Assembly (NCBI RefSeq): GCF_030651755.1
Contig: NZ_JAUSBZ010000144.1
Span: forward strand, 24,907 to 88,906
Length of the DNA: 64,000 bases
Origin: Phenylobacterium sp.
Lineage (GTDB): Bacteria > Pseudomonadota > Alphaproteobacteria > Caulobacterales > Caulobacteraceae
Direction: 5' to 3'
Part shown: in pieces, positions 184 to 51,935 of the stretch
How the letters are laid out: each line of letters starts with the position of its first letter
How positions within the stretch are numbered: position 1 is the first letter of the stretch
Program-made: the position numbers and the translations under genes
The notes under the pieces: generated by a model
Database searches by the model: none
The model's input: only the letters and a program-made list of their open reading frames with translations
What the model was told of the DNA's origin: nothing

Positions 184-483
184 ATGACGGACGCAGACGC
201 CAACATCGCTGAGGTTAGCCTCTGTCCGGTGCTCGACCTGCAAGCCGCCGAACCGTTGCGCGCAGAGCTCATGGCTCTGCGCGGGCGGCCGCTGCAAGTG
301 GACGCGTCCCAGGTCAGCCGGATTGGCGGACTTTGCCTGCAGGTCCTGCTGTCGGCGCGAATGACCTGGGCGGAGGACGGACTGCCGCTGCGCGTTGAGC
401 AGGCCTCTGACGGTTTCCTTGAACAACTGGCCGCCTTCGGCGGACCGCAGATCAACTTTGAACCCGAGGGGGCACACCTGTGA
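184..483 (+). CDS. STAS-domain (anti-sigma-antagonist-like) protein, first gene of the che operon
   Basis: 99-aa ORF with ATG at 184 and STAS-like sequence (LDLQAAEPLRAEL...LQVDASQVSRIGGLCLQVLL). Its TGA at 481-483 overlaps the GTG of the next gene (GTGA coupling). It occupies the slot of the gene named cheX in the Caulobacter che1 operon. Confidence 0.7.
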   Translation: MTDADANIAEVSLCPVLDLQAAEPLRAELMALRGRPLQVDASQVSRIGGLCLQVLLSARMTWAEDGLPLRVEQASDGFLEQLAAFGGPQINFEPEGAHL

Positions 484-845
484 ACAAAACTGTCCTGACC
501 ATCGACGATTCCCGGACCATGCGCGAAATGCTCAACATGGCCCTGGTCCAGGCCGGCTACCGGGTCATCCAGGCCGTTGACGGCATTGAGGGCCTTGAGG
601 TGCTTCGCGCCGAAGGGGCCGACGTGGTCATCACCGACATCAACATGCCCCGCATGGATGGTTTCGGCGTCATCGAAGGCGTCCGCGCCGATCCGGCCCA
701 CCGGGCCACCCCGATCCTCGTCCTCACCACCGAGAGCGACGCCACCAAGAAGGAACGCGCCCGGGCCGCCGGAGCCACCGGCTGGATCGTCAAGCCCTTC
801 AACCCGACCAAGCTTGTGGACGCCATCCGCCGCGTCGCCGCCTGA
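480..845 (+). CDS. cheY: chemotaxis response regulator CheY
   Basis: 121-aa single receiver domain with acidic pocket TIDDS, phospho-acceptor context VVITDINMPRMDG, LVLTT and the KPF lysine. It sits directly upstream of cheA. Confidence 0.9.
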   Translation: MNKTVLTIDDSRTMREMLNMALVQAGYRVIQAVDGIEGLEVLRAEGADVVITDINMPRMDGFGVIEGVRADPAHRATPILVLTTESDATKKERARAAGATGWIVKPFNPTKLVDAIRRVAA

Positions 846-892
846 GGCGGCCTTCGCCTGCGACCTAAGCTGACCTGAGTCCGGAGCACCCC

Positions 893-3265
893 GTGGATCC
901 ATTCGAGAGTATCAAGGCGACCTTCTTCCAGGAGTGCGAGGAGCTGCTCACCGACATGGAGTCGGGGCTTCTGGCCATGGAACAGGGCGACGACGATTCG
1001 GAGACCATCAATGCGGTCTTCCGGGCGGTGCATTCCGTCAAGGGCGGCGCCGGGGCCTTTGGGCTCGAGGAGCTGATCCGCTTCGCCCACGTCTTCGAGA
1101 CGGTCCTGGATGAGATGCGCTCGGGCCGGCTGCACCTGACGGACGAGGTCGCCAAGGTCCTGCTGCGCGCCTCCGACGTCCTGGCCGACCATGTGGCCGC
1201 CGCCCGCAGCGGCGGGGGGGTCGACGAAGGCCGGACTGTCGGCATGATCGCCGACCTTCAAGCGCTCATCGATCAGGATCGCGCCGCCGAACTGGGTCTG
1301 CACGACGACAACGCCAGCGCCCCCGCCGACGAGGACTTCGGCTTCGTGCCGATCGTGCTCAGCCTCGACGAACCGGCCAGCGACGCCCCAGAGGTGGATG
1401 TCGCCGCCCTGATGGCGGCCGCCTCCGATCCCGAACCGGCGACCAACCCCACCTGGGTCGTCACCTTCCGGCCCAAGGCCGACATGTACGCCAAGGCCAA
1501 TGAGGCCGCTCTGGTCCTGCGCGAGCTCTCGCGGCTGGGCGAGATCGAGGTCAGCCTGGATGCTTCGGCCGTGCCGCCCCTGGACCAGCTCTCGGCCGAA
1601 CAGGCCTATCTCTGCTGGACGATCCGGCTGGCGGGCGACAGGAGTGAAGCCGACATCCGCGAAGCCTTTGAATTTGTTGAGGATGACTGCGAGCTGAGCG
1701 TCGTCCGCGACGGCGAAGCCGCTGACGCCTCCGCTCCCGACCTGGCTATTGACGACGACAGCGACGCCTCGGCCAGCGCCGTCGAGGCCGCCGCCGCGGC
1801 GCCGCTGGATCTCGACGCCCTCCTGGCCCGGGTTCAGCCCCCGTCCGAGGCCGCCCCAGCCGATGCGGCCCCGCCCTCTCCCGAACCTGCGAAGACGGCG
1901 CCCGCCGAGACAAACGCCCCTGATCCCGCCAAACTGGATGTGGCCGGCCTTATCGCCCTGGCCGAGAAGGCCTCCCAGGACCACGCTCAGGCGGCCCCCC
2001 CGGCCGCCCCCAAGGTCGATGTGAAGACCGAGGCCCGCGCCAGCGCCGGCGCCCCGACCGCCGCCACCCCGACGATCCGGGTTGATCTCGACCGAGTCGA
2101 CCGGCTGATCAACGCGGTCGGCGAACTGGTCATCCAACAGGCCATGTTGTCTCAGCGGGTCTTTGAGAGCGGTCTGGCCCGCTCCTCCGACGTGGCCCTT
2201 GGCCTGGAAGACCTGGAGCTGCTGACCCGGGAGATCCAGGACAGCGTCATGGCCATCCGCGCCCAGCCGGTGAAGTCGGTCTTCCAGCGGATGCCGCGCC
2301 TGGTGCGTGAAGTGGCCGATCTGGTGGGCAAGAAGGTCCGCCTGGTCATGGACGGCGAGAACACCGAGGTCGACAAGACCGTCATCGAGCGCCTGTCCGA
2401 TCCCATCACCCATATGCTGCGCAACGCCATCGACCACGGGCTGGAGACGCCCGAGGAGCGGGAGGCCGGCGGCAAGGGCGTCGAAGGCACGGTCCGCTTG
2501 GCCGCCCTGCACCGGGGCGGACGCATCGTCATCGAGGTCCAGGATGACGGCCGCGGGATCAATCGCCCGCGGGTCCGCGGCATCGCCGTGACCAAGGGCC
2601 TGATCGCCGAGGATGCGGTCCTGTCCGACGACGAGATCGACAACCTGATCTTCCTGCCCGGCTTCTCCACCGCTGACGTGGTCTCGGACATTTCCGGTCG
2701 CGGCGTGGGCATGGACGTGGTCAAGCGCTCCATTCAGGCGCTTGGCGGACGGATCTCCATCACGTCTGAGCCCGGCAAGGGCTCGAAATTCTCCATGAGC
2801 CTGCCGCTGACCCTGGCCGTCCTTGACGGCATGGTGGTTTCGGCCGCTGACCAGACTCTGGTGGCGCCGCTCTCCAACATCGTCGAGAGCCTGACCCCGC
2901 GGGCCGAGGATGTTCACCTGATCGGCGGACGCGATGCGGTCATCTGCATCCGCGACACCTTCGTGCCGCTGATCGATGTGGGCGTCGCCCTCGGCTTCCG
3001 GGATACGCCGCTGCCGCCCGCCTCCGGGGTGGCCGTGCTGGTGGAAAGCGAAGGGGGCGGTAAGGCCGCCCTGCTGGTCGAGGCCATCCAGGGCCAGCGC
3101 CAGGTGGTGATCAAGAGCCTGGAAGCCAACTACCAGCATATCCACGGGGTCGCCGCGGCGACCATCCTGGGGGATGGCCGCGTCGCCCTGATCCTGGACG
3201 TGGACGCCCTGGTGACGACCTCGCGCCGAAAGGCGCCACGTATCGAGAAGCGAATGGCGGGTTGA
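893..3265 (+). CDS. cheA: chemotaxis histidine kinase CheA
   Basis: 790 aa. GTG at 893 is preceded by GGAGCA. N-terminal HPt domain ([12 protein letters not shown]), a long acidic/Pro-rich linker, kinase boxes [16 protein letters not shown] and GRGVGMD, and a C-terminal CheW-like domain. Confidence 0.95.
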
Positions 3266-3735
3266 CCATGACTGACACCGTGACCCAAGGCGTCGCTCAG
3301 CGGCGCGAACTGATCGCCTTCCGAATCGGCGACCAGGAGTTCTGCGTCGACATCATGTCGGTGCGAGAGATCCGCGGCTGGGCGCCGGCCACCCCCCTGC
3401 CCCGCACCCCGTCCTTCGTGAAGGGCGTGATCAACCTGCGCGGCGCGGTCCTGCCGATCATCGACCTGGGCGCCCGCCTGGGTCTGGACACCTCAGAGCC
3501 CACCGCCCGCCATGTCATCATGGTGGTCCATATCGGTGAGCGGACCATCGGCCTGCTGGTGGATGCGGTCTCCGACATCATCAATATGAGCGACGACCTG
3601 GTGCAACCGACCCCTGACGTCGCCAGCGACCAGGTGAAGACCTTCGTCAAGGGTCTGTTCGCCCTGGACGGCCGTATGGTCAGCCTCATCGCCCTCGATC
3701 GCGTCCTGCCCGAGACCGAAGCAGAGGCGGCATGA
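3262..3735 (+). CDS. cheW: chemotaxis coupling protein CheW
   Basis: 157-aa CheW fold ([25 protein letters not shown]...[13 protein letters not shown]). TTG at 3262 overlaps the cheA stop. ATG at 3268 is an equally plausible start. Confidence 0.9.
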
Positions 3736-4622
3736 CGCAGACCCCCGACTCCCGGCGCGGCGCAAAGAATGAGGGTCTGGTTGACGGCGAGTTCCTGCTG
3801 ACAGCTGAGGATTTCCGCAAGATCGCCCAGATCCTGCATTCCCACGCCGGCATCGCCCTCAACGAAGGCAAGGCCGCCCTGGTCTATTCGCGCCTGGCCA
3901 AGCGTCTGCGCACCCTCGGCCTGCGGAACTTCCGGGAATACTGCGCCCTGGTGGAGGACGCCGAGGCCCTGGACGAGCGCCAGGCGATGATGGCCGCCCT
4001 GACCACCAATGTGACGCGCTTCTTCCGCGAGCCGCACCATTTCGACCACCTGCGCGACCAGGTGATGCCCGAGCTCGCCGCCCGCGCCCGGGCTGGCGGT
4101 CGTGTGCGCATGTGGTCGGCCGCCTGCTCCAACGGCCAGGAACCCTATTCCATGGCCATCACCCTGCTGTCGGTCCTGCCCGAGGCCGCCAAGCTGGACG
4201 TGAAGATCCTGGCCACCGACATCGACCCCAACATGGTGGCCGAGGGCAAGGCCGGCTGTTACCGCGAAGACGCCGTTTCTCCCGTACCCCTGGAGCTGCG
4301 CCGCCGCTGGTTCGAGAAGGTCTCCGCGCCAGACGGGCGCATCTGGTCGGTCTCGCCCGAACTGCGCAACCTGGTGGCGTTCCGTGAACTGAATCTCATT
4401 GGCGACTGGCCCATGCGCGGCCGGTTCGACACCATCTTCTGCCGCAACGTGGTGATCTATTTCGACGAACCCACCCAGGAGCGCATCTGGAGCCGTTTCG
4501 TGCCAGCCATGAACCCTGGCGGCACCCTCTATATCGGCCACTCGGAGCGCGTCACCGGCCCGGCCGTTTCGACCCTGGAGACCGCCGGCCTGACCACCTA
4601 TCGTCTGAGGGCCAAGCCATGA
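3732..4622 (+). CDS. cheR: chemotaxis protein methyltransferase CheR
   Basis: 296 aa with a CheR N-terminal helical domain plus a SAM-methyltransferase core ([27 protein letters not shown]). Its ATG overlaps the cheW stop (ATGA). Confidence 0.93.
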
Positions 4623-5656
4623 CTGTTCGCGTCCTCATCGTCGATGACTCGGCCACCATGCGCAGTCTGATCGCCGCGACCCTGCGTCAGGATCCCGAGA
4701 TCGAGGTCCTGGGGTTCGCCAATGATCCCCTGGAAGCGCGCGAGGCCATCAAGCGCCTGAACCCCGACGTGATCACCCTCGATGTCGAGATGCCGCATAT
4801 GAGCGGCCTGGACTTCCTCGAGAAGATCATGCGCCTGCGGCCCATGCCGGTGGTGATGGTGTCCACCCTGACCCAGGCCGGCGCCGACGCCACCCTGTCG
4901 GCCATGGAGCTCGGCGCCGTCGATTGCGTCGGCAAGCCTGGCGCCGGAAACACGGCGTCGGAAGCCTTCGCCGACCTCGCCGATAAGGTGAAGGCCGCCG
5001 CCCGGGCCCGGGTTCGCCCCTTCGCCGGCCCTGTCGTCCGCGCCGAGGAAAACCGTTCCTACCGGGCTGAGGACATCATCGTGGCGATCGGCTCGTCCAC
5101 GGGCGGGGTGGAGGCCTTGATGACCATCCTCTCCGGCTTCCCGGCCACCTGCCCGCCGACCGTCATCACCCAGCACATGCCGGCCACCTTCACCAAGAGC
5201 TTCGCCGAGCGCCTGGACCGGATTTCCGGCGCCAAGGTGGCCGAGGCCTGGGACGGCGCCCGCCTGGCGCCCGGTCATGTCTATCTGGCGCCGGGTGGGA
5301 TCGCGCATCTGGAAGTCACCGGCACGACCCACCCCACCTGCCGCCTTCGCCAGGACGAGGCGGTGAATGGCCATCGCCCATCGGTGGACGTATTGTTTGA
5401 GTCTGTCGCGCGCCTGAACCGTCCGGCCCTGGGGGTGATCCTCACCGGCATGGGACGGGACGGCGCCCAGGGCCTCCTGAGCCTTCGCCAGGCCGGCGGC
5501 CGCACCCTGGGACAGGACGAGGCCAGTTGCGTCGTCTATGGCATGCCCCGCGCCGCCCACGAGATCGGAGCGGTGGAAAAGCAGTCGCCGCTTGCTCGCA
5601 TGAGCGCGGCAATCCTTGGTCTATGCGCGGCGACTGAGCCGCAGAGGAGCGCCTGA
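4619..5656 (+). CDS. cheB: protein-glutamate methylesterase/deamidase CheB
   Basis: 345 aa with an N-terminal receiver ([19 protein letters not shown]) and a C-terminal esterase ([15 protein letters not shown]). Its start overlaps the cheR stop. Confidence 0.93.
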
Positions 5657-6045
5657 TGCCCGCCCCCGGAGCCATCAAGACCTTGATCGCCGATGATCAG
5701 CAGTCCATGCGCTCGCTGATCCGCACCAGCCTGAACGCCCTTGGGATCACCCAGACCCGGGAGGCGGCCGATGGCGAGGACGCCTTGCGCGCCCTGCTGG
5801 CCCAGCCGGCCAATCTGGTGATCACCGACTTCAACATGCCCAAGCTCGACGGGCTGGGGCTGCTGCGGGCCATCCGCGCCCACGGTCCGATTTCGAAGAC
5901 CGCCGTCATCATGCTGACCGGCCGCGCCGACCGCGAGCTTGTGCAGCGGGCGGTGCAGTTCGGCGTGAACAATTATCTGGTCAAACCCTTCACGACGCAG
6001 ATCCTGAAGGAAAAGATCGAAGCCGTTTTCGGGCCCCTTGAATGA
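5656..6045 (+). CDS. cheY: chemotaxis response regulator CheY (second copy)
   Basis: 129-aa receiver (LIADDQ, VITDFNMPKLDG, IMLTG, VKPF). Its ATG shares a base with the cheB TGA. Confidence 0.9.
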   Translation: MPAPGAIKTLIADDQQSMRSLIRTSLNALGITQTREAADGEDALRALLAQPANLVITDFNMPKLDGLGLLRAIRAHGPISKTAVIMLTGRADRELVQRAVQFGVNNYLVKPFTTQILKEKIEAVFGPLE

Positions 6046-6599
6046 TCGTTGAGAACATCTCGAATCGGGCGGGCCGGCGGATCCATGTGGTCCAGGGCGA
6101 GCACTATGTCACCGACGACCCGGAGGTCACCCTGACCACCATTCTGGGGAGCTGCGTGGCCGTGTGCCTATGGGATCCCGAACGGGGCGTCGGCGGCATG
6201 AACCACTTCCTGCTGCCGGAAGGTAAGGCCGAGGGCGCCAACGAGGGCCGCCGCTATGGCGCCTTCGCCATGGAGCTCTTGATCAACGAACTGTTGCGCC
6301 TGGGCGCCCGTCGGGAACGCCTGCAGGCCAAGCTGTTCGGCGGCGCGCGCATGTTCAGCGGTCTGTCGGACGTGGGCGCCTCCAATATCGCCTTCGCCGA
6401 ACGTTTCATGCGGGATGAAGGCATTCCGGTCATGGGCACCAGCCTCGGGGGCTTTGGCGCCCGGCGCATCCAGTTCTGGCCCACCACGGGCCGAGCCCAG
6501 CAGAAGACCGTGACCGACACCCATGAACTGACCAACCTGAAAGAGGTCCCCAAGCCCGCCCCCGTGGTCGTCGACGACGGCGCGGTGGAGCTATTCTGA
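6042..6599 (+). CDS. cheD: chemoreceptor glutamine deamidase CheD
   Basis: 185-aa CheD family signature (ILGSCVAVCLWDP...GGMNHFLLP...KLFGGA). Start and stop overlap the neighbouring genes. Confidence 0.9.
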   Translation: MIVENISNRAGRRIHVVQGEHYVTDDPEVTLTTILGSCVAVCLWDPERGVGGMNHFLLPEGKAEGANEGRRYGAFAMELLINELLRLGARRERLQAKLFGGARMFSGLSDVGASNIAFAERFMRDEGIPVMGTSLGGFGARRIQFWPTTGRAQQKTVTDTHELTNLKEVPKPAPVVVDDGAVELF

Positions 6600-6979
6600 T
6601 GCGTCCCGGCCAGGTCGCCGTCCTTGCGCCGCCGCTTCTGTCCGCCCTGGCCGCGGAGATGGACCACGCCGGCGACCTGTGCGCCCGGCTGGAGGAGCTG
6701 GTCACCCGTCTCGCCGCCGCCGTGGAGGGCGAACCCCGGGAGCTGGCGCTGAGCGAGGCCCAGACCCTCGACGTCCTGACCCAGCACCTGTCCGCCGTGG
6801 CGGTGTTCATGCGCGGCATGTCGGAGCAGTTGACCACCGCCCGGTCGGTCGATCCCGATGCGGTCTTGGCCCTGGTGCCGCTCAGTGAGCTCGCCGGCCG
6901 GCTTCGCGGCGTGCTCTACAACGCCAGTCAGATCCCGCCGACGCCAGACGGCGCGTCCGGCGATCTCGACCTGTTCTAA
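6599..6979 (+). CDS. che-operon protein of unknown function (position of Caulobacter cheU)
   Basis: 126-aa ORF, translationally coupled (ATG at 6599 overlaps the cheD TGA). It looks helical and I recognise no motif. The call rests on coding context and synteny with the Caulobacter che1 operon. Confidence 0.5.
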   Translation: MRPGQVAVLAPPLLSALAAEMDHAGDLCARLEELVTRLAAAVEGEPRELALSEAQTLDVLTQHLSAVAVFMRGMSEQLTTARSVDPDAVLALVPLSELAGRLRGVLYNASQIPPTPDGASGDLDLF

Positions 6980-6990
6980 GGGGGGCCGCC

Positions 6991-7587
6991 GTGAGCCTCC
7001 ACCCCGATGTCCGGCTGAACCTGGCACGCTCCAATGTCCTGCTCATCGATGACAATGAACAGGCCCTGGAAGTGCTCGCCTCCATCTTCCGCGGCTTTGG
7101 CGTCCACCGGCAGGTGAAGTGCGGCTCGGCCGCCGACGCCCAGGCGGTGCTGCGTAGCCGCGAGATCGACCTGATCGTCTGCGACACGGTCATGCCCGAC
7201 ATGGACGGCTACAGCTTCGTCCGCTGGCTGCGGCGGGAAGGTCCTGAGGAGGCGCGCTTCGCCCCTGTGATCATGCTGACCGGCCACGCGGCGCGCTCGA
7301 CCATCGAAAGCAGCCGCGACTGCGGCGCCAATTTCATCGTCTCTAAACCCTTCACACCCGAAGTCCTGCTGCAGCGGATTTACTGGGTGGCGAAGGATGA
7401 ACGCTCCATGGTCCGCAGCGACTCCTATGTGGGCCCCGACCGCCGCTTCCGGAACGTAGGGCCGCCGCTCGGCGTCAAGGGCCGCCGTAAGGACGATCTG
7501 TCGGCCCACGTCGGGATAGCCAAGGATCCGAACATGGACCAGGACGAGATCGACAACCTGCTGAAGCCGCAAAGGGCCGCCCTATGA
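6991..7587 (+). CDS. CheY-like receiver protein with a ~70-aa Arg-rich C-terminal extension (Cle-like)
   Basis: 198 aa. The receiver covers residues 15-130 (LLIDDN, LIVCDTVMPDMDG, IMLTG, SKPF). An extension follows that contains GPDRRFRNVGPPLGVKGRRKDD (nt 7435-7491). Confidence 0.8.
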   Translation: MSLHPDVRLNLARSNVLLIDDNEQALEVLASIFRGFGVHRQVKCGSAADAQAVLRSREIDLIVCDTVMPDMDGYSFVRWLRREGPEEARFAPVIMLTGHAARSTIESSRDCGANFIVSKPFTPEVLLQRIYWVAKDERSMVRSDSYVGPDRRFRNVGPPLGVKGRRKDDLSAHVGIAKDPNMDQDEIDNLLKPQRAAL

Positions 7588-8063
7588 GCGACGCCGAGAT
7601 CTTCAAGGTCCGCAACCGCCTGGCCAACCATGTGAGCGAGCCGGGGGGCATGACCGCCGGGATGGCCGGCTCGCGCGCCGCCCGTGAGCTGGCCGCCCAG
7701 CAGGGCAAGTCCTATGAGGCTATCGGCGAAGCCCTGGAGACCCTGGAATGGCTCTGCCAGGACAAGTCCGCGCCGATGGATTCGGTCTATGACCTGTCGA
7801 CCACCGTGCTCGATATCGCCGGGCTGTTCGATGACAAGCAGCTGTGCCGCGCCGCCTACAGCCTCTGCGAACTGGCCGACAAGCTCCGCACCCGGGGCGC
7901 GGCGGACTGGGCGCCGATCAAGATCCATGTGAACGGCATGCGGCTGATCTGGAACACCGCCGAGGCGGACCGCGAGGGTCTGAACGCCATGGTCGAAGGC
8001 CTCTGGAGCCTGACCGAACATCTGAGCATCGGTGACGGCGAGGCCGAAGCGCCGGCTGCCTGA
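7584..8063 (+). CDS. che-operon protein of unknown function (position of Caulobacter cheE)
   Basis: 159-aa ORF whose ATG overlaps the upstream stop. It is the last gene of the operon. I recognise no motif. Confidence 0.5.
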   Translation: MSDAEIFKVRNRLANHVSEPGGMTAGMAGSRAARELAAQQGKSYEAIGEALETLEWLCQDKSAPMDSVYDLSTTVLDIAGLFDDKQLCRAAYSLCELADKLRTRGAADWAPIKIHVNGMRLIWNTAEADREGLNAMVEGLWSLTEHLSIGDGEAEAPAA

Positions 8064-15890: not shown

Positions 15891-17273
15891 ATGCAGCACC
15901 AGATGGAGGACTTCATCCGCGCCCTTCGGGCCGCCGATGTGAAGGTCTCGCCGGCTGAGTCCATCGACGCCCACGAGGCCGTGGCCCGCATCGGCTACGC
16001 CGATCGCGAGCTGCTGAAGGACGCGCTGTGCGCGACGCTCGCCAAGAGCGAGGACGAGGTGGCCCGGTTCGACCGAGCCTTCGACAACTTCTTCGCCCGC
16101 GATCCCTTCGACTTCGCCACACCGCCCCCGCCGCCGGAGGGGGGCGAGGCCCCGCCGCCCGAGGCGAGGCTGGAAGACGTGTCCGAAGAGGCCGCAGGCT
16201 CAGAACTCGCCCAGATCATTCTGGCGGGCGATTCCACCGCGCTCAGCCAGGCCATGGAACGCGCCGCCCAGGCCGCCCAGGTCTCGGAGATCAGGCTTTC
16301 CACCCAGAAGAGCCGCCTGACGAGGCGGCTGCTGGACGAGATGGGCGTGGCCGAGATCGAGAAGATCATCAGCCAGGCCCGCAGGCTGGAAGGCGAAGGC
16401 GGAAACGCCCTGGCCGACCGGCTGGAGGCCGGCCGCAAGATCGTGGCGGCCGAAGCCCAGCGCTATGTCCAGCGCCAGCATGACCTCTATGCGTCGGAGA
16501 GCGGCCGCCAGCTGCGCGAGGAGCTGTTGGCCCGAAAGGCGCTGAACGCCGAGGGCGGCATCGATCCCGTCGACCTGCAGGTGATGCAGGCCCTGGTGCG
16601 CAAGATGGCCAAGCGCCTGGCCGACCGTTACTCGCGTCGCCGCAACCGGGCCCGCAGGGGTCACCTGGACGTGCGCCGGACCCTGCGCCAGTCGATGGCC
16701 TATGGCGGGGTGCCGTTCAATGTCGTCTGGAAGACCGAGCGGGTCGACAAACCCAAGATCATCGCCATCTGCGACGTCTCCAAGTCGGTGGCTGCGGCCG
16801 CCCAGTTCCTGCTGACCTTCCTCTACAGCCTCAATGAGGTGGTCGACCGGATGGACGCCTACGCCTTTTCCGGCCGCATGATCCCGGTGAACCAGATCCT
16901 GGACGAGCACGGGGTGGACAAGGCGATCCTGGAGGTCCTGAAGCTGATCGGCTTCCAGCAGACCGACTATGGCCGCGCCCTGCAGGACTTCGCCGAGAAC
17001 CATCTCGACAAGCTCGACCGCCACACCACGGTGATCTTCTTAGGCGACGCCCGGTCCAACTATGCCGATCCGCGCCTGGACATCATGCGCACCATCCACG
17101 AGCGGTCCCGTTCGGTGATCTGGCTGAACCCGGAGCCGGAGAGCTACTGGAACCAGGGCGACAGCGTCATGAACCGCTACCTGCCCTTCTGCCACCTGGC
17201 CAAGACCTGCAACACGCTCGACCAGCTCGAACGCATCATCGAAGACGTCCTGCGCCAGTACGTCCCGCACTGA
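15891..17273 (+). CDS. VWA-domain (CoxE-like) protein
   Basis: 460 aa with a C-terminal VWA domain carrying a MIDAS motif DxSxS (CDVSKS) and FLGDARSN. It starts 10 nt after the MoxR-like gene, the canonical MoxR-VWA pairing. Confidence 0.8.
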   Translation: MQHQMEDFIRALRAADVKVSPAESIDAHEAVARIGYADRELLKDALCATLAKSEDEVARFDRAFDNFFARDPFDFATPPPPPEGGEAPPPEARLEDVSEEAAGSELAQIILAGDSTALSQAMERAAQAAQVSEIRLSTQKSRLTRRLLDEMGVAEIEKIISQARRLEGEGGNALADRLEAGRKIVAAEAQRYVQRQHDLYASESGRQLREELLARKALNAEGGIDPVDLQVMQALVRKMAKRLADRYSRRRNRARRGHLDVRRTLRQSMAYGGVPFNVVWKTERVDKPKIIAICDVSKSVAAAAQFLLTFLYSLNEVVDRMDAYAFSGRMIPVNQILDEHGVDKAILEVLKLIGFQQTDYGRALQDFAENHLDKLDRHTTVIFLGDARSNYADPRLDIMRTIHERSRSVIWLNPEPESYWNQGDSVMNRYLPFCHLAKTCNTLDQLERIIEDVLRQYVPH

Positions 17274-17280
17274 GGGGTGG

Positions 17281-18207
17281 TCAGTCCCGGCGCGGCCAGC
17301 GGTGGGAAATGTAGATCCGGCTGTCGGTGAACCCGCCGCGGAGATAGGCGTCGGCCACGGCGATCTCTTCCCGCGCCTTAGCGATCGCCGCACCGATCCG
17401 GTCGGTAGACGGTGAGGGATAGCTGGTCGCCTCGCCCAGGCGCTTCCAGCTGAACCTCTGCCAGAAAGAAAGCTTGACCCGCGGCGGCCCGACACCGCCC
17501 GATACGCCGGACGCCTCGCCATCGTTGACCTCCTGGCTCCGAAAGCGGACGTTGATGTAGGTCTCTACGCCGCTGCTGTAGCCGAACCAGATCGACTGCT
17601 GTCGGCCATGGAGTTCGCGGGTGATGACGCCGGCCTCGGCCATGGCCGGCCGGGGCGGAAATGACCAGCCGAGATCCTGCAACAGGGGCAGCAATTCCGC
17701 CCGCATGGCTTCGCGTAGGGAGGTCTCAGGCGGCGTCGTGCGGGACGTGGCTCGCCGCGCCAGCCTGATCCATTCGAGACCGTCCGTCTCCCCCGCACGA
17801 TAACCACACAGGCTTTCAGCCAAGACGAGGGGCGCCTCGTATTCATCCGCGTCTGGCGGAATGGGGGGCAGCTCGCCCATCGACATCGGTTCGCCTGCGT
17901 CCTCCGCGGAAGCTAGCAACCACTGAAGCTGGCCATCCCGATACGCCTTCGCCCGGGTGAAGCTCGCGGTATCGATGATCTCGGCCCCCAGGGCCTCCCC
18001 ACACGCCCCAGAAACGCGGGGAAGTTCGGCCAGCAGATCGTCAGAGGCGCTTCCAACCAGGACAAGCCAGCCGGACGGCAGGTCAGCCATCACCAGCCCC
18101 ACGCCGACCTCCTGGCTCACCTCGCCCGCGACCTCCAGCCTCAGACACTCCAGCAGCGCCTGCCGCCGCTCCGCCTTCACCGCCACCCAGCTAAGCTTAA
18201 GGCCCAT
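17281..18207 (-). CDS. hypothetical two-domain protein, candidate immunity partner of the upstream toxin-like gene
   Basis: I trimmed the 359-aa track ORF, whose first 35 codons overlap the upstream gene. ATG at 18207 has GGGGAAAAGGGGG ending 6 nt upstream; ATG at 18234 is an alternative. The C-terminal half (LLPLLQDLGWSF...SIWFGYSS...YINVRF) reminds me of DUF4304-type immunity-associated domains. That comparison is from memory only. Confidence 0.5.
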   Translation of the reverse strand: MGLKLSWVAVKAERRQALLECLRLEVAGEVSQEVGVGLVMADLPSGWLVLVGSASDDLLAELPRVSGACGEALGAEIIDTASFTRAKAYRDGQLQWLLASAEDAGEPMSMGELPPIPPDADEYEAPLVLAESLCGYRAGETDGLEWIRLARRATSRTTPPETSLREAMRAELLPLLQDLGWSFPPRPAMAEAGVITRELHGRQQSIWFGYSSGVETYINVRFRSQEVNDGEASGVSGGVGPPRVKLSFWQRFSWKRLGEATSYPSPSTDRIGAAIAKAREEIAVADAYLRGGFTDSRIYISHRWPRRD

Positions 18208-18253
18208 CGGTCGCCCCCTTTTCCCCAGGAACATGGTTTGCCGTCTACGGCTA

Positions 18254-19411
18254 TTACTTTCTTTGATCCAATACTGGAGGTGCGAAAGGACTCGAAACAG
18301 CAGAAGCGGCTTTGCCCACGTCTGGCGGCACGGTATGATATAGAATAAATTTATCCCCAAGAAGCTCTTGGGCCAAAATCTGATTTGGAGTCAGACGCAC
18401 GTCAAAACCAAATTTATCCTCAAACCGGATCAGGTTTTCCGATACACCATCCGGATACCAATACCGCGTTCTTTCTTCATTGAGAAAATCCCGTTTTTTT
18501 GTTATAGGCATCCAATCTTCTGCATCAAGAACTTCATCACCATTTCTTGGCCAATAGCCAACCAATGGCCTGGGCTCTCCATTCAATTTACTTCGCGTGA
18601 TGCCGAGAAGATCGCCGAGATTCCCCTTCCCCTTCGTTGAAAGCCCATTGGACCAACGCTGAGCGAAGCCGTCAGAGAATCCACCAAATGCACCGCCCAG
18701 AACCGCCGCCTGGCCCGCATTCTCCGATGACGGAGTTCGACCATTCAAATAGTCTTGCGCCGTTGTTGTAGCCGCCGCGCCGAATGCACCAGCGCGGACC
18801 GGGCCTGCCGGCAGCGCCGCTGCGCCGACGGCACCGCCTATAGCGGCGCCGACGCTATCGGCGGCGGTCGATGTCCGCCCCTGTAGGGTATCCGTGCCAA
18901 TCTGCACGCCAAGCCCCGCCACGCCTCCGCCGCCGACAATGGCGGCGATTTCTCTGCCTGTCAGTGCGGCTGCGCCAGCCAGTCGAGGGGCGGCGGCGAC
19001 AACGCCCATGGCAGGCGCTGCCGCAGCGGTCGCGGCGACACCCATGACAGCGCCGCCTGCATTGCCTACGCCCTTGGCGATGGGACGCTGATCGGCGTCC
19101 AGACGACCTCTCGTCTGCTCATCCCGAAGGTTTGAACGGAAGCTCTCTCCCAGATCTGCCCCATTTGCCGCCTGGAAGAGCGCATTGGCTCCGGCGGCAA
19201 GTCGGTCCGCGCCTCCGAGGGTCATGACATTTGCCGCCCCCCTCACGGCCGTATCGATCTGCATCGCCCCTTGCTGAGCCAAAGCGCTAGCCTTGCGCAG
19301 GGTCGGAGATCCTCGAACCGCTACGGCGAGCTTTCTTTGCGCATTCAAGCGCGCAGCTTCGACTTTTGCCAACTTCTCTCGAAGGGCAACCGCCTGAGTT
19401 AACATGGACAT
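18254..19411 (-). CDS. modular toxin-like protein: coiled-coil N-terminus, Gly/Ala-zipper region, low-GC C-terminal PD-(D/E)xK-like domain
   Basis: 385 aa with no signal peptide. Residues 113-250 are a GxxxG/AxxxA-rich zipper (AIVGGGGVAGLGVQIG, GAAIGGAVGAAAL, AVLGGAFGGF). Residues ~253-385 are encoded by ~47% GC DNA and contain YWYPDG-x9-EDK. The CDS call is firm; the function is inferred. Confidence 0.55.
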   Translation of the reverse strand: MSMLTQAVALREKLAKVEAARLNAQRKLAVAVRGSPTLRKASALAQQGAMQIDTAVRGAANVMTLGGADRLAAGANALFQAANGADLGESFRSNLRDEQTRGRLDADQRPIAKGVGNAGGAVMGVAATAAAAPAMGVVAAAPRLAGAAALTGREIAAIVGGGGVAGLGVQIGTDTLQGRTSTAADSVGAAIGGAVGAAALPAGPVRAGAFGAAATTTAQDYLNGRTPSSENAGQAAVLGGAFGGFSDGFAQRWSNGLSTKGKGNLGDLLGITRSKLNGEPRPLVGYWPRNGDEVLDAEDWMPITKKRDFLNEERTRYWYPDGVSENLIRFEDKFGFDVRLTPNQILAQELLGDKFILYHTVPPDVGKAASAVSSPFAPPVLDQRK

Positions 19412-19557
19412 TCTGCGGCTGGCGCAGCCAGCCGTCCCTCAAGGTGTGGAAGGCTTACACTCGGCGTGCGTTCAGCACGTCAGCGGTCTAATCCTGCCAC
19501 AAAGAGAACGAGCGTCCAGAACAAAATAGGAACATCTCTCTCGCGCGCCGCCGGGCC

Positions 19558-21744
19558 CTACCCCGCCGCTAGCTCCGACGCCTTCAGCGGCAGGCTCCGC
19601 ACCCGCTTGCCGGTCGCGGCGAAGATGGCGTTGGTGACGGCCGGAACCACCGGCGGCAGGGCAGGTTCGCCGAGGCCCGTGGGCGGATTGTCGGACTTGA
19701 GGAAGTGGGTCTCGATCACCGGGGCGTCATGGATGCGCAGCAGGGGGAAGGTGTCGAAATTGGCCTGTTCGACCTGACCGTCCTTGATGGTGATCTCGCC
19801 GAACATCTCCGAGATGCCGTCGATCACCGAGCCTTCGATCTGGTTGAGCGCGCCCACGGGATTGATGATCTGGCGGCCGACGTCGGCGGCGACCCAGACC
19901 TTCTCCACCTTCACCGTCCCATCGTCAGCGACCGCCACCTGGGCCACCTCGGCGAAATAGCCCAGATGGCTGTAGTGGAAGGCGATGCCCTGGCCCTGGC
20001 GGGGGCCGAGCGTGGTCTTGCCCCAGCCGGCCTTTTCAGCGGCCAGGCGCACGACGCCGGCCATGCGTTCGGCGTTGAGGCCGCCCTGGCCGTCGGCCGC
20101 GGCGGCGTTGCCGAGCAGGCGCAGGCGCATCTCCACCGGATCGACCCCGCCGGCATGGGCCAGCTCGTCGATGAAGGACTGCACCACAAAGGCGATGGCG
20201 TTGCTGCCCGGCGCCCGCAGGGGCCCCGTCGGCACGCCCAGGGGCATCATGGAGACGTCGAGTTTGTAGTTGCCGAGGAACTGGGCGGGGAATTCGGTCG
20301 GGGCCATGCCGGCGCTGCGGGCGGTGGCCTCGCCCTCGCCGAAGGTGACGAAGTGATTGGCCCAGGCGGTGATATTGCCTGAGGCGTCGACCCCGCCGCG
20401 GAAGTGGTGGAAGCCGGCCGGACGATAGAAGTCGTGGCGCATGTCGTCTTCCCGGGTCCAGACCAGCTTGACCGGGGCGCCGGCCTCCCGGGCGATCCAG
20501 GCGGCCTCGACCATGTAGTCGTTCATCAGCCGGCGACCGAAGCCGCCGCCTGAGCGGGTCATGTGGACGATGACATTTTCCGGCGCGATGCCGAGCGTCG
20601 TGGCCACCAGCTGGCGGCCGGGTTCGGGCAGCTGGGTCGGGGCCCAGATCTCCATCTTGCCGTGATGGAAGTGGGCCGTGCAGTTCTGCGGCTCCAGGGT
20701 GGCGTGGGACAGGAAGGGATAGAAGTAGTCGGCCTCCACCGTCTTGGCTGAGGCCGCCAGCGCGGCCTCCACATCGCCGTCGCTGCGCAGGGTCTTGCCG
20801 CCCTTGGCCGCCGTGAGGCTGCGAGCCTGGCCGGCATAGCCCGGCGTCGACTGGCTGGAGGTGGGATGATCGGCCCACTGAATATTCAGAGCCTGCCGGG
20901 CCTTCTCAGCCGCCCACCAGGAGTCGGCGACCACGGCCACGCCGGGCAGCAGGCCGTCGAGTTCGGTCCCGCCCTCGACCACAAAGGCCTTGCGCACGCC
21001 CTTGATCCCTTGCGCGGCGGCGAGGTCGACGCTGGCCACCTTGGCCCCGAACACGGGGGCCTTGGCGTAGGCGGCGTAGAGCATGCCCGGCAGGCGCATA
21101 TCGATGCCGAACAGGGGCTGTCCGGTGACGATGGCGGCGGTGTCCACCTGCGGAATCGGCTGACCGATGATGCGGTAGGCCGAGGCGTCCTTGAGCTTGA
21201 GGCTCGACAGCTCCGGCGCGGTCTGGGCGGCGGCCTTGGCGGCGAGCGACCCATAGGTCGCCCGGCGGCGGCTGGCGGCGTGAACCACGACGCCCGGCTC
21301 AGTGGTCAGGCTGGCGGCGTCCACGCCCCAGTCGGCGGCCGCCGCCGCCATCAGCATGGCCCGGCCGGCGGCGCCCACCTGGCGCAGCTGGTCCCAGTGC
21401 AGGGGGGTGGCCATGGAGCCGCCGGCGAACTGGCGGCCATAGGCGACCGGATCATTGCCGGCCTGGACCGTGCGGACATTGGCCCAGTCCACGTCCAGCT
21501 CCTCGGCGATCAGCATGGGCAGGGAGGTCTTGATGCCCTGGCCGATCTCCGGGTTCTTCGAGACGATGGTGACGATGCCGTCCGGGGCGATCTGCACATA
21601 GGCGTTGAGCTTGGCGAGACTATCGGCCGCTGCGCCCTTGCCCGCGAAGGAGAAGGCCAGGACCAGGCCGCCCGCGGCGCCCGAGGCCAGCACGGCCCGG
21701 CGGGAGGGGGAGAAGCCTTCAGTGATGTTGGAGATGACGCCCAT
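19558..21744 (-). CDS. molybdopterin-dependent oxidoreductase, large subunit (IorB/aldehyde-oxidase family), Tat-exported
   Basis: I trimmed to the ATG at 21744 (MGVISNITEGFSPSRRAVLASGAAGGLVLAF, an RR Tat-like signal). Large Mo-hydroxylase beta-subunit-like sequence. It starts 5 nt after the 2Fe-2S subunit gene. Confidence 0.85.
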   Translation of the reverse strand: MGVISNITEGFSPSRRAVLASGAAGGLVLAFSFAGKGAAADSLAKLNAYVQIAPDGIVTIVSKNPEIGQGIKTSLPMLIAEELDVDWANVRTVQAGNDPVAYGRQFAGGSMATPLHWDQLRQVGAAGRAMLMAAAAADWGVDAASLTTEPGVVVHAASRRRATYGSLAAKAAAQTAPELSSLKLKDASAYRIIGQPIPQVDTAAIVTGQPLFGIDMRLPGMLYAAYAKAPVFGAKVASVDLAAAQGIKGVRKAFVVEGGTELDGLLPGVAVVADSWWAAEKARQALNIQWADHPTSSQSTPGYAGQARSLTAAKGGKTLRSDGDVEAALAASAKTVEADYFYPFLSHATLEPQNCTAHFHHGKMEIWAPTQLPEPGRQLVATTLGIAPENVIVHMTRSGGGFGRRLMNDYMVEAAWIAREAGAPVKLVWTREDDMRHDFYRPAGFHHFRGGVDASGNITAWANHFVTFGEGEATARSAGMAPTEFPAQFLGNYKLDVSMMPLGVPTGPLRAPGSNAIAFVVQSFIDELAHAGGVDPVEMRLRLLGNAAAADGQGGLNAERMAGVVRLAAEKAGWGKTTLGPRQGQGIAFHYSHLGYFAEVAQVAVADDGTVKVEKVWVAADVGRQIINPVGALNQIEGSVIDGISEMFGEITIKDGQVEQANFDTFPLLRIHDAPVIETHFLKSDNPPTGLGEPALPPVVPAVTNAIFAATGKRVRSLPLKASELAAG

Positions 21745-49738: not shown

Positions 49739-49753
49739 GAACAATCCCCGAAC
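49739..49753 (+). promoter_or_regulatory. alphaproteobacterial LexA (SOS) box upstream of ruvC
   Basis: GAAC-aatcccc-GAAC is an exact match to the complement of the direct-repeat operator GTTC-N7-GTTC. It ends 18 nt upstream of the ruvC ATG at 49772. Confidence 0.6.
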
Positions 49754-49771: not shown

Positions 49772-50290
49772 ATGGCCGCCGTGCGAATCCTTGGACTGGA
49801 CCCCGGCCTCCGCCGCACCGGCTGGGGGGTGATCACCATAGAGGGCGCGCGCCTGGCCCATGTGGCCCATGGGGTCATCGCACCCAAGGACTCCCTGCCC
49901 TTCTCCGAACGCCTGCTGGTGCTGTTCGAGGCCATCAGCGCGCTTGTCGCCGAGCACGCCCCTGACGAAGCGGCGGTGGAGGAGACCTTCATGAACAACA
50001 ACGCCGCCTCCGCCCTGAAGCTGGGCCACGCCCGGGCCATGGCCCTGGTGGCGCCGGCCAGGGCCGGCCTGCCGGTGGCCGAATACGCCGCCACCGTGGT
50101 CAAGAAGGCCGTGGTCGGCACTGGCGGCGCCGACAAGGACCAGGTGGCCTTCATGATCGCCCGGTTGCTGCCGGCCGCCGGCGGGGTCACCGCCGACGCC
50201 GCCGACGCCCTGGCTGTGGCCATCGCCCATGCCCACGCCCGCACCGCCCGCAGCCTGGCGAGCCGCACGCCATCGAGGAAGGTGGCGTGA
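49772..50290 (+). CDS. ruvC: Holliday junction resolvase RuvC
   Basis: 172 aa. [25 protein letters not shown], and [11 protein letters not shown]. Confidence 0.95.
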
Positions 50291-50907
50291 TGATCGGCCG
50301 GCTGCGCGGAACGGTCGCCGAGATCGGCGAGGAAGACGCCCTGATCGACGTCCTCGGCGTCGGTTATGTGGTCCGCTGCGGGGTCCGCACCCTCTCGCGC
50401 CTGCCCCCGGTGGGCGAAGAGGCCGTTTTGCACATCGAGACCCAGTGGAGCGAGCAGGCGGGCATGCGCCTCTATGGCTTTCTCAGCCGGGACGAGCGCC
50501 GCACCTTCCTGATCCTCAAGGAGATTCAAGGCGTCGGACCCAAGGCGGCTCTCTCCGTCCTGGACGTGCTGCCGCCGGCCGAGCTGGCCGCCGCCGCCGG
50601 CCGCCAGGACAAGGCCGCCATCGCCCGCGCCCAAGGGGTGGGACCCAAGCTCGCCCTGCGCATCGCCACGGAGCTGAAGGACAAGCCCCTCACCGACCTG
50701 CCGGTCAGCGCGTTCGCGCCAGGCGCGGGCGCAGCAGACCCCGCGCCGGCCCCCTCGGCCTCGGGCGAGGCCGTCGCCGCCCTGATGGGCCTGGGCGTCG
50801 CCGAGCCTCAGGCCCGACGCCTGGTGGAGGCCGCCGTGCTGCGGCTGGGTGAGGACGCCGAGGCCGGCGCCCTGATCAAGGCCGCCCTGCAGGAGCTGGG
50901 TCGATGA
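50287..50907 (+). CDS. ruvA: Holliday junction branch-migration protein RuvA
   Basis: 206 aa. MIGRLRGTV...GVGYVV, and the HhH region [13 protein letters not shown]...[12 protein letters not shown]. Confidence 0.95.
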
Positions 50908-51935
50908 CCCGCCTGGTCAGCGGCGAGGCCGCGCCGGCCGAGGGAACCGACCGAGCCTATCGTCCGCAGACGCTCGCCGAATTCGTCGGCCAGGAGCAGT
51001 CCAAGGCCAATCTTCGCATCTTCATCCAGGCGGCCCGGGACCGGGGCGACACCCTGGATCACGTCCTGCTGTTTGGCCCGCCGGGCCTTGGCAAGACGAC
51101 GCTGGCCCAGATCATCGCCCGGGAGATGGGGGTGAACTTCCGCGCCACCTCCGGCCCGGTCCTGGCCAAGGCCGGGGATCTCGCGGCCATCCTGACCAAT
51201 CTGGAGGCCGGCGACGTCCTCTTCATCGACGAGATTCACCGCCTGGCGGCCAATGTGGAGGAGATCCTCTATCCCGCCATGGAGGACCACGTCCTGGACC
51301 TGATCATCGGCGAAGGCCCCTCGGCCCGCTCCATCCGCATCGATCTGGCGCCCTTCACCCTGGTGGCGGCCACGACCCGGGCCGGCCTTCTGGCCACGCC
51401 TCTGCGCGACCGGTTCGGCATCCCGGTGCGGCTGGAATTCTACACCACCGACGAACTGATCAAGGTGCTGGCCCATGCGGCGGGCAAGATGGGCGTCAAC
51501 CTGACCAAGGACGGCGCCGCCGAGATCGCCGCCCGCGCCCGCGGCACGCCCAGGGTCGCCGGCCGGCTTCTGCGCCGGGTCCGCGACTTCGCCGCCGCCG
51601 AGGGCGCCGCGGCCATCGACAAGGGCGCGGCCGGACGGGGCCTGGCGCGCCTTGAAGTGGACGAGGTGGGTCTGGACTCCCTGGACCGCCGCTATCTGCG
51701 CGCCCTGATCGACAACTATGGGGGCGGGCCGGCGGGGGTGGAGACCATCGCCTACGCCATCGCCGAGGCCCGGGACGCCGTTGAGGACGTCATCGAGCCC
51801 TATCTGATGCAGCAGGGCTTCATCCAGCGAACCCCCCGGGGCCGGGTGGCCTGCGCCAAGGCCTATGCGCATCTGGGCCTGACGCCGCCGCCGCAACCGC
51901 CCGGGGCTGGCCAACCCACCCTGTTCGACGAGTAG
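50904..51935 (+). CDS. ruvB: Holliday junction helicase RuvB
   Basis: 343 aa. Walker [10 protein letters not shown], Walker B LFIDEIHR, and [16 protein letters not shown]. Confidence 0.97.

Follow-up and report, generated by a model that had tools for sequence, protein, structure and literature searches.

A predicted SOS-controlled gene pair of Caulobacterales that joins a phage-related body to a nuclease-like domain

Damage-induced killing in Caulobacter, DNA ejection by phages and toxin entry in Agrobacterium offer the closest described comparisons for the locus considered here, a pair of minus-strand genes (A and B) in 64 kb of Phenylobacterium sp. DNA (contig NZ_JAUSBZ010000144.1, positions 24,907 to 88,906; this whole stretch is "the window"). 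In Caulobacter, GTTCN7GTTC is the LexA consensus, ruvC is an SOS gene and bapE, which acts late in the SOS response, promotes death after damage (PMC12700426). The gp16-like ejection proteins of phages are soluble proteins with transmembrane regions that refold and insert in the host inner membrane, with their C-terminal part in the cytoplasm, and ejection proteins often swap domains (PMC8954989). Tde1, a DNase of the Agrobacterium type VI secretion system (T6SS), carries a glycine zipper that makes the inner membrane of the target permeable and that the protein requires to cross it and so enter the target cell (PMC10240207).

Gene A (18254-19411, minus strand) starts at an ATG and encodes 385 aa, which by their sequence comprise a putative membrane-inserting body and a nuclease-like C-terminal domain; gene B (17281-18207, minus strand) encodes a 308-aa cytoplasmic protein that is the commonest partner of A. 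An earlier note on this DNA had described the two as co-directional genes 19–46 nt apart, and the list of open reading frames (ORFs) bears this out. Taken together, predicted SOS control, a body of an outside-in type, a catalytic-type C-terminus, a patchy distribution, a recombining block and a linked partner that is kept as an orphan are best matched by a colicin/S-pyocin-like nuclease toxin that is induced by SOS and has a protective partner, the pair being an accessory module of the Caulobacterales. We favour this reading tentatively, as possible rather than probable: from the sequence we infer that LexA binds and the genes are induced, that A acts as a nuclease, inserts into membranes, is toxic and is released and taken up, and that B protects.

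Promoter, body and C-terminal domain of gene A

Aligning the region upstream of A with that of its relatives (related loci are labelled L001-L046, and homologous proteins by P numbers) brought out a predicted LexA operator, GTTCCTATTTTGTTC (GTTC-N7-GTTC; 19519-19533, minus strand), 108 nt upstream of the A ATG. The earlier note had neither this box nor the phage relatives of the body described below. Exact GTTC-N7-GTTC occurs twice in the window against 0.91 copies expected, and the other copy (49739-49753) stands directly upstream of ruvC-ruvA-ruvB (49772-51935), where it serves as an internal positive control because ruvC is a known Caulobacter SOS gene. Across the family, an exact box on the gene's strand lies 80-264 nt before the first aligned codon in 13 sequence-distinct A lineages, at least eight of them in different genomic neighbourhoods, and about 0.03 such recurring boxes would be expected by chance (our own estimate, based on a shuffle rate). 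Most lineages have a TTGAC -35-like element that overlaps the box and a TAnnnT-like element ~17 nt further on. Departures are few in kind: a one-mismatch box in L043/44, an exact box on the other strand of a divergent intergenic region in L017, and no box upstream of A in L035 and L041, the latter having one between A and B. In the A-less loci L021 and L023 the box is kept directly upstream of B. We infer that A is under LexA repression and SOS induction, and the conserved box predicts induction by mitomycin C or UV.

Between box and gene, the 5' leader of A (19412-19518, minus strand) is conserved in L001, L005 and L012. It holds a perfect 7-bp hairpin (19417-19433, minus strand; GGCUGGC-UGC-GCCAGCC) that ends 5 nt before the A ATG, occupies the expected Shine-Dalgarno place and is kept in close relatives; as a candidate regulatory element it was set aside, its fold of -16.9 kcal/mol giving a non-significant z of -1.4. 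Rfam, terminator and promoter scans of 17000-19800 returned nothing. A DriD site upstream of A was likewise rejected after comparison by eye with the published didA, driD and bapE promoters, which gave no convincing match. DriD co-regulates bapE in C. crescentus, and we note in passing that a WYL/WCX-domain regulator of DriD type (L027, 10362-11348) is encoded two genes downstream of a distant A homologue.

The operator also speaks for the strongest rival explanation, a self-directed SOS death or abortive module of BapE-like or toxin–antitoxin-like kind, which we rate as somewhat unlikely. Under it A would never be exported; after severe damage, or a phage-triggered SOS response, it would enter the inner membrane of its own cell and degrade the chromosome, and B, where present, would be an antidote that sets the threshold. 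LexA control would then parallel that of Caulobacter bapE, whose promoter carries GTTCGCGTTATGTTC, and an export route would be unneeded, which fits the missing secretion genes and the missing signal peptide (none was seen in A on inspection by eye). PADLOC, however, yielded no match. Moreover, a self-directed killer would leave unexplained why its body comes from a protein built for membrane entry from outside.

That body, to judge by its sequence, comes from a phage ejection protein of the gp16 position. Residues 40-125 of A (19037-19294, minus strand) are a conserved module (RGAANxxTxGGAD...) common to the phrog_5880 proteins of P22-like phages. In a PHROG scan, residues 45-222 of A fell on profile positions 46-211 of the 661 of phrog_5880 (E = 3.5e-4); a full-length match to this family was not obtained in that scan, the homology being limited to ~86 columns. 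A profile search with 54 diverse family members also retrieved proteins of 700-976 aa (P0202-P0207), which have in common with A only residues ~40-125 and Gly/Ala-rich helices. All five of these that were scanned (P0202, P0203 and P0205-P0207) are solid phrog_5880 members (E from 1e-24 to 6e-48). A and P0203 are 41% identical over 79 aa by BLASTP (E = 3e-11), and hhalign aligns the A module with the phrog_5880 proteins over 86 columns (probability 98.7%, E = 2e-16). The phage that encodes P0203 is P22-like. Its genes for terminase, P22 portal and capsid are followed by those for a gp10-like stabilisation protein and a phrog_598 'DNA ejection' protein; next come a 253-aa gene, P0203 itself and a gene that weakly matches a tailspike (PHROG E = 3.7e-4). 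The place of P0203 is the gp16 position of a gp14/gp15/gp16-like ejection operon. At L025, the phage protein lies within a virion structural/ejection operon, in contrast to A, which is in no such operon; the window and most of the loci have no phage genes.

Downstream of the module, and overlapping its end, residues 113-250 (18662-19075, minus strand) form the Gly/Ala-zipper helices that had already been described from the sequence. This stretch counts 39 Ala and 30 Gly (69 of 138 residues), has dense small-xxx-small spacing and holds 7 of the 11 GxxxG motifs of A, as well as invariant glycines at G116, G120, G162, G166, G188, G192, G193 and G196; weak hydrophobic peaks lie at ~118-146, 154-173 and 182-206. 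The AlphaFold2 (AF2) model places helices from residue 141 on at a predicted local distance difference test (pLDDT) score of 54-72, with residues 104-140 below 50. Residues 1-110 are basic (pI 11.1) and predicted helical at low confidence. A tape-measure identity was considered and rejected: the phrog_167 match (E = 0.017) spans the Gly/Ala region alone, and tail genes are absent nearby.

Homology of residues 40-125 to gp16-position ejection proteins of P22-like phages likewise supports an explanation that we think improbable, in which A is a phage-linked accessory protein, either loaded in trans into co-resident P22-like virions or acting at the DNA-entry site. If loaded into virions, A would be synchronised with prophage induction by the SOS box and, injected as an extra ejection protein, would cut recipient DNA; if acting at the entry site, it would serve as a decoy, a nuclease in the inner membrane by which superinfecting phage are kept out. 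B would protect the carrier. Domain swapping is common among ejection proteins (PMC8954989), and some loci are visibly phage-associated: A is directly upstream of a Terminase_3 gene in L044 and adjoins a phage-type integrase gene in L041. In L046, an IMG/VR contig of a P22-like phage, a ~5-kb insert (2463-5200) in the moron region between the large terminase and portal genes contains a truncated A homologue and a B-like gene, together with a HipA_C fragment and another piece of the A N-terminus; the proximity of the HipA toxin fragment in a moron region is equally a point for self-directed killing. Yet most loci, the window included, are free of phage genes, L046 is the single IMG/VR contig with the module and its A is truncated, and tblastn of A, B, P0203, P0205 and the C-terminal consensus found no meaningful match in GenBank phages or PLSDB plasmids. 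The shared module is, moreover, just ~86 aa, and no packaging signal is known.

We consider it similarly doubtful that A is a chromosomal hitchhiker effector, loaded into or cooperating with a P22-like ejectosome, timed by the LexA box and with B protecting carriers. A would then be injected with the phage DNA, or inserted at the DNA-entry site, and would cut the DNA of the recipient. If true, this would amount to a new delivery route, with phage capsids as the secretion system for a host-encoded nuclease. In a milder form of the same idea, A may be a self-translocating bacteriocin with an entry domain captured from a phage gp16-like protein.

The C-terminal domain of A (residues 253-385; 18257-18655, minus strand) carries a PD-(D/E)xK-type signature. 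Invariant or nearly so among 139 diverse representatives are K262, G266, E/D267, D321, E331, K333, G335, L340, Q344, A347, P362, D364 and G366. The conserved set for a PD-(D/E)xK enzyme consists of E/D267, D321, E331 and K333 (invariant or at least 94% in the same representatives) plus Q344; position 267 is Asp in A, whereas 94% of the family have Glu. As a consensus, the family shows KGxLGE ... PD ... vExKFG ... LSxxQ ... DHflPxDvG. AF2 models this domain at pLDDT 73-89, with lower values for residues 281-310 (46-62) and in the tail from 371 onwards; the order is helix 259-276, short strands, strand 329-334 (ExK), helix 342-354 (with Q344) and strand 355-360. This predicted order fits a PD-(D/E)xK core with its acidic residue in helix 1. 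A 20-aa insertion (YWPRNGDEVLDAEDWMPITK; residues ~283-302, 18505-18564), found only in A's own clade, sits at the junction of helix 1 and the first strand, where model confidence is low.

We take the ExK-x(4-6)-L(S/T)xxQ spacing of the domain to resemble that of VRR-NUC. In Pfam scans of 59 C-terminal domains, VRR_NUC was the family with most member matches (2 of 59, best E = 0.049), and it was the sole Pfam match of four subgroup consensus sequences (E = 0.18, below the 23.8-bit cut-off). Pfam on all 20 members of the A1 set gave no match above threshold, and hhalign with T7 endonuclease I put PD and ExK in register at P = 0.02 and a probability of 2%. On conserved residues and predicted fold, we regard the C-terminal domain of A as likely to be a nuclease.

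A nuclease in the SOS regulon might also serve repair or recombination, as a membrane-tethered, VRR-NUC-like structure-specific nuclease or resolvase to which B would be an unrelated or accessory SOS gene. The LexA box, the weak VRR_NUC resemblance and the fact that B stays behind the box even without A would all suit this explanation, but we find it very hard to credit. A patchy distribution with foreign codon usage, a mosaic C-terminus, a membrane-active body of apparently phage-derived sequence, and variable, mobile genomic contexts are each unexpected of a repair enzyme.

Accessory status, exchange and the partner gene

Named homologues of A all come from Phenylobacterium, Caulobacteraceae or metagenome-assembled genomes of Caulobacterales, and every source names them 'hypothetical protein'. 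A word-indexed search found 19 relatives; an exhaustive profile search of representatives of 50%-identity clusters found 739 at E <= 1e-3, 350 at <= 1e-10 and 225 at <= 1e-30. Distant homologues have unrelated neighbourhoods, some of them near toxin–antitoxin-like genes. On the P0016 contig, a distant A-B pair directly follows genes for a Dcm-type DNA methylase and Vsr, here too beside iorAB-like genes, though in a different orientation.

Composition sets the whole of A apart. GC content at third codon positions (GC3) is 0.41 in residues 253-385 and 0.61-0.63 in the remainder of A, against 0.80 in B and 0.89-0.92 in host genes nearby, so the entire gene is compositionally foreign, beyond its 3' end. 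The earlier suggestion of a foreign, low-GC C-terminus therefore stands as to the drop itself (GC is 0.43-0.51 at 18200-18700 and 0.60-0.74 around it) and fails as to foreignness being confined there. The additional C-terminal GC3 drop is restricted to A's own clade (L001, L005, L012 and L013) and L027.

In close relatives A and B occupy the same site, between iorAB-like and CoxE/MoxR genes, and B stands there without A in L023 (B 68% identical) and L021/22 (B 54% identical). In A-less L023, 78 bp take the place of a 1306-bp segment (18208-19513, minus strand) comprising A, its leader and the spacer, as delimited by blastn boundaries and gene maps. In L021/L022, a 1108-aa fused biotin-carboxylase/carboxyltransferase gene (4617-7943) separates B from the iorB-like gene. 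Upstream of B, the site is a variable spot.

A second level of variation lies within A. The C-terminal domain and the A-B spacer form a mosaic low-GC block (18222-18700, minus strand): P0005 and P0007 match A at 87-91% identity over the body and at 55-57% over the C-terminal domain. At the nucleotide level, identity to L005 is 35-77% in the bins between ~18640 and 18222, against 77-98% on either side, recovering at the B start, whereas identity to L001 is 95-100% in the block and 77-100% in the flanks, with several stretches of A and B at 77-90%. From this contrast of block and flanks in the two comparisons we conclude that the C-terminal block moves between strains as a unit, and the sequence similarity of window and L001 suggests a recent exchange.

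Exchange and diversification of this block between strains would be left unexplained by a self-directed SOS death module, as would intact B in A-less strains. With a toxin aimed at neighbours, as we tentatively propose, relatives that lost A would keep B as a protector.

The longest form of the B ORF (17281-18360, minus strand) would begin at a TTG at 18360, encode 359 aa and overlap A; an ATG at 18234 would leave a gap of 19 nt to A, and the ATG at 18207 one of 46 nt. We prefer 18207 because every B homologue begins MG(L/V)xLxW and because DNA homology to the A-less relatives picks up again exactly at this position. The B model predicts two alpha/beta domains, one acidic (1-99) and one basic (160-305), joined by an acidic disordered linker.

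B adjoins A in ~9 lineages and is absent in ~6. A B-like gene lies downstream of A in L015, L018, L020, L035, L036 and L046, and in L041/42 with its N-terminal domain only; it is divergent and upstream of A in L014, and in L017, there as two tandem paralogues. Because adjacency recurs across such differing arrangements, we consider A and B likely to be functionally linked. The divergence of B tracks that of the A body (r = 0.88, partial r = 0.73) and not that of the C-terminus (partial r = 0.15), and B is syntenic across the clade.

Two B-less loci, L009 and L016, have a conserved protein of ~65 aa with two predicted transmembrane segments (..WHWI.LAALATVIPAAKALSR.GLSPWWAI..VPIVGWFGLWAFAY.RWPKV..), encoded divergently from A (L009 9522-9824 and L016 4667-4945, minus strand) and behind a LexA box of its own (L009 9819-9833, L016 4972-4986). 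We see in this small protein a possible alternative partner of A, or else a membrane protein of the SOS response. Its company, like the viability of partner-less A homologues, would also be in keeping with killing directed at the producing cell.

The earlier note had proposed the architecture of a polymorphic toxin, i.e., a constant N-terminal body fused to exchangeable C-terminal domains, each with its own downstream gene. To examine this, the profile was split at residue 253, and body and C-terminus were scored separately in the 149 best representatives. The body comes with the same C-terminal domain family in 145 of them; the 'different C-termini' of the other four are artefacts of frameshifts (P0090 and P0151) or truncation (P0091 and P0162). 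Together with a B that is syntenic, lacks co-variation and is absent beside several intact A genes, this tells against the polymorphic architecture. A uniform C-terminus of uniform composition had been named as a sign against it, and the uniform C-terminus is what we found. The body does recur with a different C-terminus, in phage ejection proteins and not in other toxins. What survives is the broader idea of a toxin- or bacteriocin-like accessory module with a linked partner: A is missing where B is kept, B adjoins A in unrelated contexts, the C-terminal block is mosaic, and the predicted LexA box would give colicin-like SOS control.

The polymorphic-toxin idea has its counterpart in a rival that we see as decidedly unlikely, in which A is a cargo effector exported by a secretion system whose genes lie elsewhere (T6SS, type IV or type I), its N-terminus binding an adaptor or chaperone and B being either an immunity protein or a chaperone of the hydrophobic region. 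A glycine-zipper body, a C-terminal enzyme domain and an adjacent partner recall Tde1 with Tap1 and Tdi1; the C-terminal block recombines; and a B that follows the body, not the C-terminus, would suit a chaperone. A clientless chaperone would not persist in A-less strains, however, and SOS control is atypical of such effectors. Furthermore, the C-terminal domain is always of one family, no secretion genes occur in any of the ~25 loci examined, and no PAAR, MIX, LXG, XVIPCD or other trafficking domain was found. As the earlier note had it, there is no known trafficking or pre-toxin module: Pfam, NCBIfam and PADLOC gave no match for A or B, toxin domains included, PHROGs gave weak matches at most, and Pfam and NCBIfam found no trafficking or secretion domain (PAAR, RHS, LXG, TPS, MafB and the like) in A and its 19 homologues. 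Its statement that no secretion-system genes are adjacent also holds, since neither secretion nor prophage genes were found within +/-10 kb in a 95%-identical relative, nor by eye in the rest of the window.

Proposed mechanism, objections and surroundings

Under the colicin-like reading that we favour, DNA damage would lead to LexA cleavage and derepress the promoter at 19519-19533, so that A and B would be transcribed together. A would be made as a soluble protein able to insert into membranes, its residues 40-125 and zipper (113-250) presumably deriving from the gp16-position type of podophage ejection protein, which penetrates the inner membrane. The module would most likely act in the manner of a nuclease colicin or S-type pyocin, with A set free on lysis of damaged cells. 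The zipper would then carry the nuclease over the inner membrane of a neighbour, as the glycine zipper of Tde1 does (PMC10240207), and the PD-(D/E)xK-type domain would cut nucleic acid. B—or another partner in other lineages—would protect producers and kin, and would be retained as an orphan protector by relatives that lost A.

Several observations weigh against this reading, and we gather them here. Some concern the enzyme. No significant profile match of the C-terminal domain to a PD-(D/E)xK member family was found (VRR_NUC, E 0.05-0.18), and when A, profiles A1 and A3 and the consensus were searched against PDB sequences, only spurious matches to designed repeat proteins came back. With a mean pLDDT of 57.9, the AF2 model of A as a whole is poor. 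Foldseek comparison of the models, which the earlier note had recommended, returned nothing at E <= 0.001 for A against PDB and BFVD (best, lambda exonuclease at E = 2.5) or for B against PDB; B also has no recognisable family in Pfam or NCBIfam. Others concern export and entry: by Pfam, A has no recognisable receptor-binding or translocation domain or Tol/Ton box, no secretion system was recognised near A/B or in the window, and a lysis gene downstream has no room, because B ends at 17281 and the convergent coxE-like gene at 17273.

The remaining objections concern protection. Intact A occurs without B in L009, L016/33/34, L019, L032 and L043/44, and a cytoplasmic DNase without an immunity gene in cis would be hard to maintain; in L027 the gene downstream of A is an unrelated, overlapping one of 167 aa. 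Immunity-type co-variation of B with the C-terminal domain, as in colicin/immunity pairs, was not found. Specifically, B remains 81-83% identical both where the C-terminus is at 55% identity and where it is at 81-88%. Finally, a B with nothing but an SOS promoter in A-less strains is odd for an immunity gene, which would be expected to be constitutive.

In the window, the iorAB-like genes lie upstream of A/B in the same direction, and the MoxR and CoxE-VWA genes are convergent with A/B. Other genes include a chemotaxis operon, ABC exporters, ruvCAB, tolQR/tolB and transhydrogenase; like iorAB and moxR/coxE, they were assigned by eye, with Pfam support within +/-10 kb. The chemotaxis operon (480-8063), recognised by eye from N-terminal sequences, is complete (CheY, CheA, CheW, CheR, CheB, CheD-like and more) and unrelated to A/B. 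Long antisense or overlapping ORFs, e.g., 17957-18343 and 18368-18640 on the plus strand, show no evidence of being genes; the latter (90 aa) is opposite the low-GC part of A. We regard the antisense ORFs of the region as by-products of its high GC content.

Comparison with known systems

Nuclease colicins (E2-E9) and S-type pyocins resemble A in several respects. These include damage induction (for A, predicted from the sequence) through an operator overlapping the promoter, a nuclease-like domain at the C-terminus preceded by a Gly-rich region, a co-directional gene immediately downstream, strain-variable presence and a recombining cytotoxic block. Unlike them, A is small (385 aa) and shares no domain homology, its putative enzyme being of PD-(D/E)xK-like type and not HNH or a colicin RNase. 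The pair also has no lysis gene or Tol/Ton box, and its partner does not co-vary and is missing in several lineages.

With Tde1/Tdi1 of the Agrobacterium T6SS, A and B share, by sequence, a glycine zipper before a C-terminal DNase-type domain and an adjacent, putatively protective gene. The domain of Tde1, however, is Ntox15 (HxxD), and the protein depends on Tap1, VgrG and the T6SS; none of those genes is present here. The zipper of A is also much longer (~140 aa) and tied to a phage-derived module, in a locus with predicted SOS control. The phrog_5880 proteins of the gp16 position are homologous to A over residues 40-125, after which both continue with Gly/Ala-rich helices; they differ in length (700-976 aa), in a C-terminal part of ~400-600 aa that contains no nuclease-like domain, and in their place within a virion structural operon, whereas A usually stands alone in the chromosome.

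BapE of Caulobacter crescentus (CC_0627 / CCNA_00663), compared here by promoter and description only, comes from the same order and has a GTTC-N7-GTTC promoter box; it is a non-repair endonuclease that kills after heavy damage. Its promoter has DriD sites, and none was found upstream of A. We know of no partner gene or membrane segment for BapE. VRR-NUC (PF08774), T7 endonuclease I and CdiA-CT toxins share with A the Glu/Asp of helix 1, the (P)D and ExK strands and a helix with L(S/T)xxQ, and the model of A has the order of PD-(D/E)xK nucleases (helix, three strands, helix, strand). A is set apart from these families by the absence of a significant hidden Markov model or fold match, by an extra P-x-D-x-G motif (362-366), by its C-terminal tail and by the clade-specific 20-aa insertion.

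To our knowledge, a gene behind a LexA box that combines a PD-(D/E)xK-like domain with a Gly/Ala zipper and an ejection module of gp16 type has no precedent. The A family is described by no database searched, and in kind it resembles known SOS-induced nuclease toxins, with the restriction already given for BapE. If the reading favoured here is true, A and B would represent an undescribed class of SOS-inducible killing module in Caulobacterales, with at least 350 clusters (50% identity, E <= 1e-10), and A would be a second damage-induced nuclease candidate beside BapE in the Caulobacter-type damage response. The part of A that enters membranes would have its origin in a captured phage DNA-ejection protein. 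This would make inner-membrane crossing without a dedicated secretion system testable and would connect phage ejectosome biology, glycine-zipper translocation as in Tde1 and colicin-type SOS regulation.

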